This document shows positions 11,216 through 14,829 of a stretch of 64,000 nt of DNA, in pieces. A model generated the notes under the pieces. The model was given only the letters and a program-made list of their open reading frames with translations. It was not told the DNA's origin and did no database searches. The number at the start of each line of letters is the position of its first letter. Positions within the stretch are counted from its first letter, which is position 1. The translations under genes were made by a program, and so were the position numbers. The stretch covers positions 5,748 through 69,747 of the forward strand of contig CAUWIY010000006.1 of NCBI GenBank assembly GCA_963559065.1, read 5' to 3'. Source of the stretch: an uncultured Clostridia bacterium (lineage in GTDB: Bacteria; Bacillota; Clostridia; TANB77; CAG-508).

Positions 11216-11563
11216 CTAAACTAAACAATTTAATTCTTTTTTGATTGTTTCCAAGATGTTTGCTACTTTTTTATCAGAATAATTTTTTTGAATTTTAGTT
11301 AATTCCAATAAAACTTGTTCAACCTTTTTTTCTTGATTCAACGTCCTTTTCATAAATAATAACTTTTCTTCATATTCGAAAAGCTTATTCTCTCCCTTCT
11401 TTATAATGTCTCTAACAGCTTGCCTTGTAATATTGTTGTTTTCAGCTATTTCAGATAAAGACAAGTCATTATTATAGTAGTCATTTAAGAATTGAAATTG
11501 TTTTTTGGTTAATAGCTTTCCATATAAATCACACAATATACTTACTTTAACGTTTTTATCCAT
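11216..11563 (-). CDS. ylxM: YlxM/UPF0122 family putative DNA-binding protein
   Basis: 115 aa, helix-turn-helix-like (SLSEIAENNNITRQAVRDIIKKG). Immediately upstream of ffh as in Firmicutes. Confidence 0.8.
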   Translation of the reverse strand: MDKNVKVSILCDLYGKLLTKKQFQFLNDYYNNDLSLSEIAENNNITRQAVRDIIKKGENKLFEYEEKLLFMKRTLNQEKKVEQVLLELTKIQKNYSDKKVANILETIKKELNCLV

Positions 11564-11664
11564 AATAACTACCTCTTTTTTGTAATGCTAATATACTTTA
11601 CACCATTTTTGTTCATTTGTCAAGAGTTTTGAGCAATTTAAGTAAAAATTCAGGCTGGCAAAGG

Positions 11665-11900
11665 CGGGTCAAAGGGTCAAAGGTCAAAGGGTCAAAGGGG
11701 ACAGTCTTCAATTGTAACATTTATTTGGTCTATTTTTATCATTTTTTGTCACTTCTTGTATCACTATCTACAACCTTTAATCAGTCAAACACTTTCTGGG
11801 CTTTTTCGACATTTTCCAACATAAAAAGAGAGACAAATAACGACTGTCCCTCTTGACCAACATAAAAAGAGAGACAAATAATGACTGTCCCCCTTGACTT
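11665..11900. repeat. Intergenic repeat cluster: four tandem GGTCAAAG octamers, a 16-bp inverted repeat (GTCAAAGGGGACAGTC / GACTGTCCCCCTTGAC) about 176 bp apart, and a 41-bp tandem duplication (11816-11856 and 11857-11897, 2 mismatches).
   Basis: Read directly from the sequence. It sits between the SDR gene end and the ylxM-ffh promoter region. Confidence 0.6.
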
Positions 11901-11904
11901 CCCA

Positions 11905-12663
11905 TTAGCTTAATTTTCTTTTTTGTACTCTATAAGTAATCTTGGCTATTAAATTGCTTGGTACAAAATGGCTAAAAAATATTCCTGCTTTTACATCTAA
12001 ACCTGGTATAATATAGAATTTACCTTTTAGCAATTTTCTAACAGCATAGTTGGCTACTTCATAGCTGTTTGCTTCTCTCATGTGAAATTTTACATTTGCT
12101 ACCTTGTTGAAATTAGTTTCTACTGGTCCAGGACATAAAATACTAATTTGTACATTTGATTTGTCTTTTTTTAATTCTTCTCTTATTGATTCAGATAGTC
12201 TAACGACATATGATTTCGTTGAGTAATATGTTGCCATTAATGGTCCTGGCATAAATCCAGCAATAGATGCTACATTTAATATTTTTCCACTATTTTTTTC
12301 TTTCATATCTTTTAAATATAATTTTGTTAAAATATGATATGCAACTATATTAGTATTAATCATTTTTAGTTCTTTTTCTAAATCTGTTTTTGTAAATTCT
12401 CCACAATCTCCAAATCCCGCATTATTTACTAAAATATCTACATCTTTTACTCTATTATGAAGTTCTTTGCAATTTTGTTCATTCGATAAGTCCATTGCTA
12501 TTATTTCTATATCTACTGTATTATCTTTTAAAATCTCTTCTTTCACATCTTGTAACTTTTCTTCTGTTCGAGATATTAATACCAAATTATATCCTTTCTG
12601 TGCAAAAACCTTTGCTAAATCTTTACCTATTCCAGAAGATGCACCTGTTATTAAAACTTTCAT
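11905..12663 (-). CDS. SDR family short-chain dehydrogenase/reductase
   Basis: TGASSGIG cofactor motif, NNAG, and a Y-x3-K catalytic motif (YYSTKSYV). Confidence 0.85.
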   Translation of the reverse strand: MKVLITGASSGIGKDLAKVFAQKGYNLVLISRTEEKLQDVKEEILKDNTVDIEIIAMDLSNEQNCKELHNRVKDVDILVNNAGFGDCGEFTKTDLEKELKMINTNIVAYHILTKLYLKDMKEKNSGKILNVASIAGFMPGPLMATYYSTKSYVVRLSESIREELKKDKSNVQISILCPGPVETNFNKVANVKFHMREANSYEVANYAVRKLLKGKFYIIPGLDVKAGIFFSHFVPSNLIAKITYRVQKRKLS

Positions 12664-12728: not shown

Positions 12729-13295
12729 TTAATTCCCATGTCCCTTTTTTAATTTATTTAAAACAATTCCTACATTATGAACTATAACAGTTGAATTTTT
12801 ATTTGCAATATCTTTTCCAAAAGCTTTACAACTAACCGTCATTGCAGAAACTAATGCACTTAAAACAAATTGTATATCAAATGGTAATTGTATCTCATTA
12901 GCTATTTTCAATGAAACTAATGCACTAATAGCACCACTAAGTACACCACATATATCTCCTATAACATCAGCACAAATATTTGCAACTTTAGGTGCGTTCT
13001 TTATTAATTTTATTGAATCTTTTGAACCTTTTACCTTTTTAGTTGCTTTTGCATGGAATTCTTCTTCATTTGCAACAGTTACAGCAACCCCTATAATGTC
13101 AAAAACAACCCCTATTAGTATAACTAAAATTAAAATAAGTAGAGCTGGAACTAAACTTAAATTTGAAACCCCATTTGTTGAAACATATGAAAATATTATT
13201 GATAATACAAATGTTAAAACAAATGACTGAATTACCCAACTCATATTCGAGTGCTCTTTTTTATTTTCTCCTTTTTTACCTTCCATTTTCTTCAT
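12729..13295 (-). CDS. Hypothetical integral membrane protein
   Basis: 188-aa ORF with 3-4 predicted hydrophobic helices. No family recognised. Confidence 0.45.
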   Translation of the reverse strand: MKKMEGKKGENKKEHSNMSWVIQSFVLTFVLSIIFSYVSTNGVSNLSLVPALLILILVILIGVVFDIIGVAVTVANEEEFHAKATKKVKGSKDSIKLIKNAPKVANICADVIGDICGVLSGAISALVSLKIANEIQLPFDIQFVLSALVSAMTVSCKAFGKDIANKNSTVIVHNVGIVLNKLKKGHGN

Positions 13296-13559
13296 TTTTA
13301 TTTTTCTTTCCTTCCCTTTAGCACAAAACGAACTTTAAATTATAGACAAAAGAGATATAATTAAAACCCTTTAAGCATTCATATTATTTGCACATTTTGT
13401 CTTTTTTATAGGTCAATTTTATGCAAAAATTATTTATATTATTAAAAAAGCTCTTTTATTATATCGAAAAAAATATTTCTTTTTATATAATGAATTAAGG
13501 TAAGCATTAGCTTACCTATTATTTCTAAATAATTAAATTGATGGTAAAAACTTAAGTAA

Positions 13560-14090
13560 ATTTTACGGTTTAGGTCTGGTTGAATTTCTCTATTTCCCGC
13601 TTAACATTACTGTTATAGCCGTTTCCGTTTAAGGGAAATAACTAAATATTTTTAGCCACCAGATCGCCACTTAAATCCGTACCTTAATCCTTAAATTTTC
13701 AAGCTTTTGATAAAGCAAACATCCTAGAAGTTTTCCTTAACATACATTGTATAAAGTTACTAGTCTTTTTTGCAAATGCAATTTCATAGTCAAAGTAAAA
13801 AATCTTTGGCCAAAATCTTTTTTACTCAAGATAAAACTAATCCCAATACCTTCACTCAAGACAGGCTACTCTATGTATTTTGTGTCTTGGCACGCAACAT
13901 AGGTTTCACTCAAATTTTTCTATTTAAGTCTCCGCGAAACCAGGGAATCATATATATGCCATTATATACTACCCTAACTCCTTTACTCCCTGCTCACACA
14001 CAAAACTGGCATTCCGCGCATAAACAAGAAACTTCAACGATATGCCCTTTAGTGGATTTTTAGCCCCACCCTCATAACTTCAAGTATGAC
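13560..14090. ncRNA. GC-elevated ORF-free block. Candidate structured non-coding RNA of unknown class, or a degraded foreign remnant.
   Basis: About 530 bp, visibly richer in G/C than flanking sequence. No credible ORF on either strand: the only listed ORF, 13770..14063, has non-protein-like composition. I could not find hallmark motifs of RNase P (GGAAAGTCC), tmRNA or tRNA (GTTCGA T-loop), or the T-box sequence. Confidence 0.3.
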
Positions 14091-14253
14091 TAGAATAATG
14101 CACCATCAATTAATATTATAACAGATTTAGAAAAATATTCCAATTTTTTAGAAGACGGTTTAAGGTTTATTTCAATAATTTATTTCTTTGGTTGATGTAT
14201 TTAATTATTTTTTCTTTCTTTTTCTCACTCTTTTTCATTTTTTATCACTTTTT

Positions 14254-14829
14254 CTAATATTGTAGAAATTCTCTTATCTCTTTTTTTATTTCTTCGATAT
14301 CTTTATCATTAGCTACATTCTTTACATTTATATTTGGATACTTTTCCTTTATCTCATCAGCCATTTTTAAATACTCTCTTTGTTGCTTTATACTACTTTC
14401 AATATTAAATTCTGCTCCTTTAAAAATAGCTTTACCTTCTCGATTTAATCTTTCATAATATTTCATCTCATCTTGTAAATATAATGTTATATAATATATA
14501 TCAAAATCTAAATTAGAAAATTGCTCTAACAGCTTTTCATACACATCTGTGAATATATATTCTTTCATACCTAATCTACAATAATTTTCTTCTGTAAAAA
14601 ATGTTCTATCAAAAATCAAATTAACACTTTTATTTTCCATCTTTTTCATGTATTCCAACAAATCTATATACATGTCCTCTGCCTTTTTCTTTCCTGTAGG
14701 TGTGCTATCCGATGTTCCACATAGTCTATATAAATTTGAGTATGGTAACGTATGTCTTAAAAAATCTGTTATTGTGGTTTTTCCCGCCCCCTGTGGTCCT
14801 TCTACTACTATTATTTTTGAATTTGCCAT
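14254..14829 (-). CDS. P-loop NTPase, deoxynucleoside-kinase-like or AAA-like small kinase
   Basis: Walker A motif IVVEGPQGAGKTT at the N-terminus. 191 aa. Overall architecture resembles dNK/thymidylate-kinase fold kinases. Confidence 0.55.
   Translation of the reverse strand: MANSKIIVVEGPQGAGKTTITDFLRHTLPYSNLYRLCGTSDSTPTGKKKAEDMYIDLLEYMKKMENKSVNLIFDRTFFTEENYCRLGMKEYIFTDVYEKLLEQFSNLDFDIYYITLYLQDEMKYYERLNREGKAIFKGAEFNIESSIKQQREYLKMADEIKEKYPNINVKNVANDKDIEEIKKEIREFLQY

Follow-up and report, generated by a model that had tools for sequence, protein, structure and literature searches.

The locus and its neighbours

The stretch of DNA analysed here, 64 kb in length and referred to throughout as the window, carries on its minus strand a block of raised GC content that lies between a gene for a membrane protein and an ORF for a kinase-like protein. 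An earlier reading of the DNA from its sequence only (the sequence-only reading) had placed the block at 13560-14090; it gave no strand, and it left the downstream membrane protein unrecognised as OapA. The genes and features that make up the locus are the following, with coordinates counted from the first letter of the window.

11905..12663 (-): gene for an SDR-family oxidoreductase (Pfam adh_short, E = 4.5e-47), following oapA
12729..13295 (-): oapA, encoding a 188-aa membrane protein, directly downstream of ole
13498..13517 (-): hairpin AGGUAAGC-UAAU-GCUUACCU, 23 nt past the 3' strand of helix P1
13525..14122 (-): match to the whole of the Rfam OLE RNA model (RF01071), 334.2 bits, E = 1.7e-94
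13541..14107 (-): OLE RNA proper (567 nt), bounded by the two strands of P1 (RNAalifold, 70 homologues)
14115..14122 (-): extended -10 box TGnTATAAT of the predicted ole promoter (promoter scan)
14138..14143 (-): -35 box TTGGAA of the predicted ole promoter (promoter scan)
14254-14829 (-): P-loop kinase-like ORF, 191 aa, upstream of ole

The wider gene order is rpoB, rpoC, deaminase, UDPGP, phosphoesterase, kinase-like, ole, oapA, SDR, ylxM, ffh, rimM, trmD and rplS, and the setting of the ole locus is ordinary housekeeping DNA. The 191-aa P-loop protein showed sub-threshold similarity to dTMP and deoxynucleoside kinases in Pfam and NCBIfam, confined to its N-terminal P-loop region, and its gene is found upstream of ole in 19 related loci. 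Adjoining the rplS-trmD-rimM-ffh cluster, between 3662 and 7163, are three ORFs that had no Pfam match at E<=1e-5, of 735 aa (4186-6393, minus strand), 177 aa (6630-7163, plus strand) and 159 aa (3662-4141, minus strand).

The GC content of 13560-14090 is 35.4%, compared with 27.2% for the whole 64-kb window, so that the block ranks at the 99.5th percentile among all 531-bp windows of the stretch; in absolute terms the elevation is modest, because rpoB/rpoC and other coding stretches also reach 35-36%. The intergenic flanks are GC-poor, at 20.5% (13296-13524) and 19.8% (14123-14253). Across 13525-14122 there are 11-18 stop codons in each of the six frames, and the longest open stretch amounts to 99 codons (a 97-aa ORF with a TTG start on the plus strand). 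Neither this ORF nor the two shorter ORFs inside the block had a Pfam match at E<=1. The sharp departure from AT-rich surroundings, the lack of a plausible protein on either strand and the position between membrane and kinase genes, all noted in the sequence-only reading, were therefore borne out. The extent that it gave corresponds to a real block but is slightly too small at both ends when set against the Rfam match and the RNA proper. Searching AT-rich DNA for GC bumps that hold no ORF is a workable way to find structured RNAs.

Family membership and fold

OLE, the ornate, large, extremophilic RNA, is a class reportedly described by Puerta-Fernandez and colleagues in 2006. It is among the largest and best-conserved of those bacterial non-coding RNAs to which the literature has yet to assign a biochemical function. 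A scan of the window with cmscan against Rfam 15, a check which the sequence-only reading had proposed, returned RF01071 as the sole gathering-level match in the 64 kb; this match spans model positions 1-616 of 616, and its 334 bits compare with a gathering score of 50 bits. In a permissive Rfam scan (E<=10) of 13300-14260, OLE was recovered at E = 2.5e-96 together with five chance-level matches (E 0.7-10) to unrelated small families. The description of the block as an unclassified structured RNA was thus right as to a large structured non-coding RNA, with OLE named first among its candidates, but the RNA is not unclassified.

Relatives were gathered through the 188-aa protein, which has 286 of them in a species-representative genome collection; the best 80 of the 286 were taken as loci (L001-L080). 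Proteins of these best 80 are 63-89% identical to that of the window, and all are titled as MAGs of uncultured gut Clostridia or Clostridium. Rfam scans of 17 loci found in all 17 a full-length OLE (320-365 bits) that directly precedes the oapA homologue and shares its strand, and an nhmmer search with the window's OLE placed ole upstream of oapA in each of those among the 80 loci that had enough DNA upstream. Between the window and its closest locus (L028, Clostridium sp. CAG:575), OLE is 93% identical and the surrounding DNA 79-81% identical, indicating slower evolution of the RNA than of the protein-coding genes around it.

Covariation, a further analysis put forward in the sequence-only reading, was assessed on a MAFFT alignment of 70 full-length OLE homologues (A1), on which the Rfam consensus structure was projected through the row of the window, giving 144 pairs. 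Standard pairs occupied 91.7% of the cells (144 Rfam pairs, 70 homologues), compared with 33-49% when the 3' partners were slid by 1-3 columns. Double-sided (compensatory) changes were present at 64 pairs, and the observed measures were reached by 0 of 500 column shuffles. An independent RNAalifold run recovered the Rfam helices and added long-range helices that are absent from the Rfam consensus line, namely P1, P2, P3, P3.1 and a GGGC/GCCU helix closing P5-P8; the additional P1, P2, P3 and P3.1 covary across the 70 homologues. The ornate fold of about 25 helices that characterises the class is thereby supported by covariation. Measured from P1 to P1, the median length in the clade is 568 nt. 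The main helices and loops of the window's RNA, apart from three that are treated in the next section, are as follows.

14107-14102 / 13546-13541 (-): P1, GAUGGU/ACCAUC, with five G-C to A-U double changes
14088-14084 (-): P3 5' strand CAUAC, partner GUAUG at 13745-13741 (RNAalifold)
14080-14074 (-): P3.1 5' strand, 7 bp, partner at 13760-13754, strong covariation
14051..14070 (-): P4 hairpin, A-rich loop GCUAAAAA, loop identical in 70/70 sequences
13986..14031 (-): P5/P5.1 long hairpin, loop UGCCA at 14011-14007, UGCCAG in 68/70
13936..13981 (-): P6/P6.1 hairpin, loop UGGCA at 13961-13957, GGCA in 70/70
13763..13862 (-): P9 long arm, palindromic loop UUGGCCAA at 13814-13806
13593..13640 (-): P14/P14.1, GNRA loop GUAA at 13610-13607, GUAA in 68/70 and GCAA in 2/70

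At one pair of P3.1 all four Watson-Crick combinations occur (CG 27, GC 15, AU 14, UA 12). P3 (5 bp) and P3.1 (7 bp) add up to 12 bp that link domain 1 to domain 2, and a 12-bp P3+P3.1 has been described and proposed as a membrane-spanning stem (Lyon and Breaker, PMC12265935). Several of the conserved loops have counterparts in the cryo-EM structures, in which the A-rich loop of P4 forms an RNA-RNA dimer contact, the loops of P5.1 and P6.1 form a kissing pair that is likewise a dimer contact, and the palindromic loop of P9 serves as a dimer kissing loop (PMC12265935). In the window, the P5.1 loop UGCCA is complementary to the P6.1 loop UGGCA, and GGCC is present in the P9 loop of the window as well as in the commonest P9 loop forms among the 70 homologues. 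Two related OLE RNAs (L063:3342-3892 and L073:3375-3936) are without the distal half of P9, the palindromic GGCC loop included.

The reduced form and its protein partner

Three further helices of the window's RNA are reduced or altered.

13909..13928 (-): P7, 5-bp stem and 10-nt loop (17 bp in the Rfam consensus)
13871..13902 (-): P8, outer 5 bp kept, inner stem about 3 bp (GUG/CAC; RNAalifold)
13641..13657 (-): P13, 6-bp stem, loop AAAUAU, with no GNRA tetraloop and no single-base bulge

In the cmscan alignment, model positions ~205-236 (P7) are deleted. Among the relatives P7 is short (16-23 nt) in 55 of 70 and longer (40-73 nt) in the remaining 15, and P8 (helix 7) is only 62% paired under the Rfam register. 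A GNRA tetraloop at P13 was found in 0 of the 70 relatives. Since the GNRA tetraloop and single-base bulge of P13 constitute the mapped OapB-binding site (PMC7936274), that site is absent from the window's RNA.

Such a reduction has been described before. In the form that Fernando and Breaker (2024, PMC11332333) call variant 1, P7, P8 and P9 are shorter and the OapB-site nucleotides of P13 are often missing; this variant occurs most often in TANB77, a clade of uncultured bacteria of the gut whose reduced genomes are largely without OapB and OapC (PMC11332333). As judged from the predicted fold, the window's OLE fits variant 1 in three of these four features, with P7 and P8 shortened and the OapB-site nucleotides of P13 missing, whereas its P9 is unshortened at 100 nt, as in the Rfam consensus. 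Like variant 1, it retains oapA, and its relatives are MAGs of uncultured gut Clostridia of very low GC content. The locus thus belongs to a known, curated RNA class in an already described variant, and nothing about it is categorically new.

OapA, the OLE-associated protein A, was reportedly described by Block and colleagues in 2011. The 188-aa protein of the window aligned with OapA of C. acetobutylicum at 39% identity over 174 aa (BLASTP, E = 1e-30), the reference being taken from Supplementary Table 4 of Kretsch et al. 2025 (PMC12286853) as machine-read text in which small errors are possible. Scans of the protein against Pfam and NCBIfam gave sub-threshold noise only (OPT, pilin, CoxD), because an OapA model is absent from both libraries. 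Published OapA has four membrane helices and, on the cytoplasmic side, a cluster of basic residues (PMC12265935). A Kyte-Doolittle scan of the window's protein at a cutoff of >=1.6 marked three hydrophobic segments, with a fourth (~residues 139-160) below the cutoff, and the loop at residues 76-103 carries 8 K/R; these predicted segments and the basic loop would be in line with the published description. The window's protein also shares with OapA its size (~190 aa), the lysine-rich loop and its encoding directly after ole, and differs in that the fourth membrane segment appears only weakly hydrophobic in this simple scan.

Searches with tblastn found no significant match to C. acetobutylicum OapC or bS21 within the 64-kb window. 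A particle built on OapA alone is suggested by the missing OapB site, and by analogy with the OLE RNAs studied in Halalkalibacterium halodurans and Clostridium the OLE particle in this lineage probably works with OapA and without OapB.

Compared with the full-length OLE RNAs of Halalkalibacterium halodurans and Clostridium acetobutylicum, the window's RNA has kept a length of ~570-600 nt, helices P1-P6 and P9-P15, the P4, P5.1/P6.1 and P9 loops, the invariant junctions and the 12-bp P3+P3.1. As in those bacteria, oapA is the next gene downstream and has the same orientation. The record titles of the relatives point to anaerobic Bacillota. It differs from the full-length form in P7, which has gone from ~17 to 5 bp, in the reduced inner stem of P8, and in P13, where an A/U loop stands in place of the tetraloop and bulge that bind OapB.

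Transcription unit and rival readings

The promoter of ole is predicted to be of the sigma-A type, conserved and immediately upstream of the RNA. TATAAT or TATACT is present in 70 of 70 aligned loci, and TTGGAA(TA) stands at a fixed 17 nt from the -10 box in nearly all of the 70, although the sequence of the spacer varies. The predicted transcription start, ~14107-14108, coincides with the first base of P1. The -10 box falls within Rfam positions 1-8, so that the first ~15 nt of the RF01071 match would be promoter DNA and not RNA; Rfam-based OLE coordinates overshoot the likely 5' end here (14107-14122).

At the 3' end, the hairpin at 13498-13517 has a weak U-tail, and the terminator scan called it on the plus strand only. 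We took it as a minus-strand feature, since there is no plus-strand gene whose end it could mark and since the relatives carry hairpins at the corresponding site. There, the best perfect hairpin has an 8-10 bp G+C-containing stem in ~29 of the 70 loci, and the stem sequences differ. The hairpin is a candidate leaky terminator or 3'-end stabiliser. With so weak a U-tail, read-through into oapA is possible.

Such read-through bears on the strongest of the rival readings, that the element is OLE-like but mainly cis-acting, controlling expression of the oapA(-SDR) mRNA as its long structured 5' leader rather than as a free-standing RNA. The position of ole directly upstream of oapA on the same strand would suit a leader, as would the lack of a strong U-tailed terminator between the two in the window, a gap that shrinks to 6-30 nt in some relatives, and the polycistronic transcript of which ole is part in H. 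halodurans (PMC12265935). Nevertheless, we consider this reading quite improbable. P1 closes the RNA into a discrete unit, the hairpins past the 3' end recur with differing stems, and in the window an AT-rich spacer of 244 nt separates the RNA from oapA. Moreover, the loops for RNA-RNA dimerisation are conserved though a leader would not need them, and published OLE is an abundant RNA that binds the OapA protein (PMC12265935). In contrast to the H. halodurans arrangement, ole in the window has its own predicted promoter and sits among housekeeping genes of the ffh/rpoBC region.

That the block is a decayed protein gene or a foreign fragment of higher GC content without present function, as the sequence-only reading had also entertained, has a negligible chance of being true. 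Its GC content above that of the surroundings and its lack of an intact ORF are what one would expect of such a remnant, but the block gives a full-length match to a structured-RNA family, changes on both sides at 64 pairs, and is more conserved than the neighbouring genes (93% versus 79-81% identity), which rules out both a pseudogene and foreign DNA. Its position and promoter are conserved in related loci, and its internal ORFs are without a Pfam match. Homologous regions that encode a protein in relatives had been named as the sign of a decayed pseudogene; an intact protein at the position of ole was found in none of the 70 aligned homologues.

A group II intron remnant or another large RNA class (ROOL, GOLLD, RNase P, tmRNA), to which only size and host group would point, can be dismissed as practically without likelihood, since none of these models matched at E<=10 in the Rfam scan of 13300-14260, in which OLE alone was significant, ARAGORN found no tRNA or tmRNA in the window, and no reverse-transcriptase ORF lies near the block. 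The sequence-only reading had reported no hallmarks of RNase P, tmRNA, tRNA or the T-box, and its suggestions of a ROOL- or GOLLD-like class and of a decayed intron are set aside by these scans.

The best explanation, in which we have high confidence, is that the block is an OLE RNA gene on the minus strand, in reduced form, with its own promoter and with its oapA partner downstream; no observation speaks against this identification. The account of how such an RNA would work is borrowed here from distant relatives. By that analogy, the ~570-nt RNA would fold into domain 1 (P3-P9) and domain 2 (P1, P2, P10-P15) and dimerise through its conserved loops, and OapA would bind it and hold it at the cell membrane. 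In H. halodurans the OLE particle is required for normal growth with ethanol, in the cold, at high Mg2+ and on poor carbon sources; the ribonucleoprotein of OLE and OapA may likewise help the present bacterium against short-chain alcohols, cold, excess Mg2+ and poor carbon sources. The locus is a clean minimal example of the class, in which ole has a promoter to itself, its RNA lacks the OapB site, and oapA adjoins it. It lends support to the view, already in print, that OLE can do without P7, P8 and OapB binding but not without its partner OapA.

An SDR gene stands after oapA, in the same orientation, in 60 of ~71 related loci. It is conceivable, if unlikely in our judgement, that ole heads a compact module made up of its own promoter, an OLE without the OapB site, oapA, SDR and two tandem terminators, with the SDR protein as a lineage-specific partner of the OLE particle; were this so, the enzyme could act on a membrane lipid or an alcohol, for example. 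All of the loci belong to one clade, and the linkage of SDR to oapA is therefore explicable by shared ancestry alone. The 2024 phylogenetic profiling of OLE (PMC11332333) makes no mention of a dehydrogenase, reductase or oxidoreductase, and uses "short-chain" of alcohols only.

Right after the SDR stop codon, at 11816-11897 on the minus strand, are two tandem units of ~41 nt, TCAAG[G/A]GGGACAGTC[A/G]TTATTTGTCTCTCTTTTTATGTTGG, each consisting of a hairpin (GGGACAG/UGUCUC) and a T-run. From their sequence, the two units look like paired intrinsic terminators that close the oapA-SDR unit. A second GC bump, at 11500-12000, had no Rfam family in a permissive scan (best E 0.73); the part at 11500-11900 is accounted for by these terminator-like repeats together with short tandem repeats. 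The latter include, at ~11660-11700 on the minus strand, 4-5 tandem copies of an 8-9-nt unit, CCTTTGAC(C), placed just upstream of a promoter-like site (TTGACA-17-TAAAGT) for ylxM-ffh. This array may be a regulator-binding array or a set of reiterated -35-like boxes.
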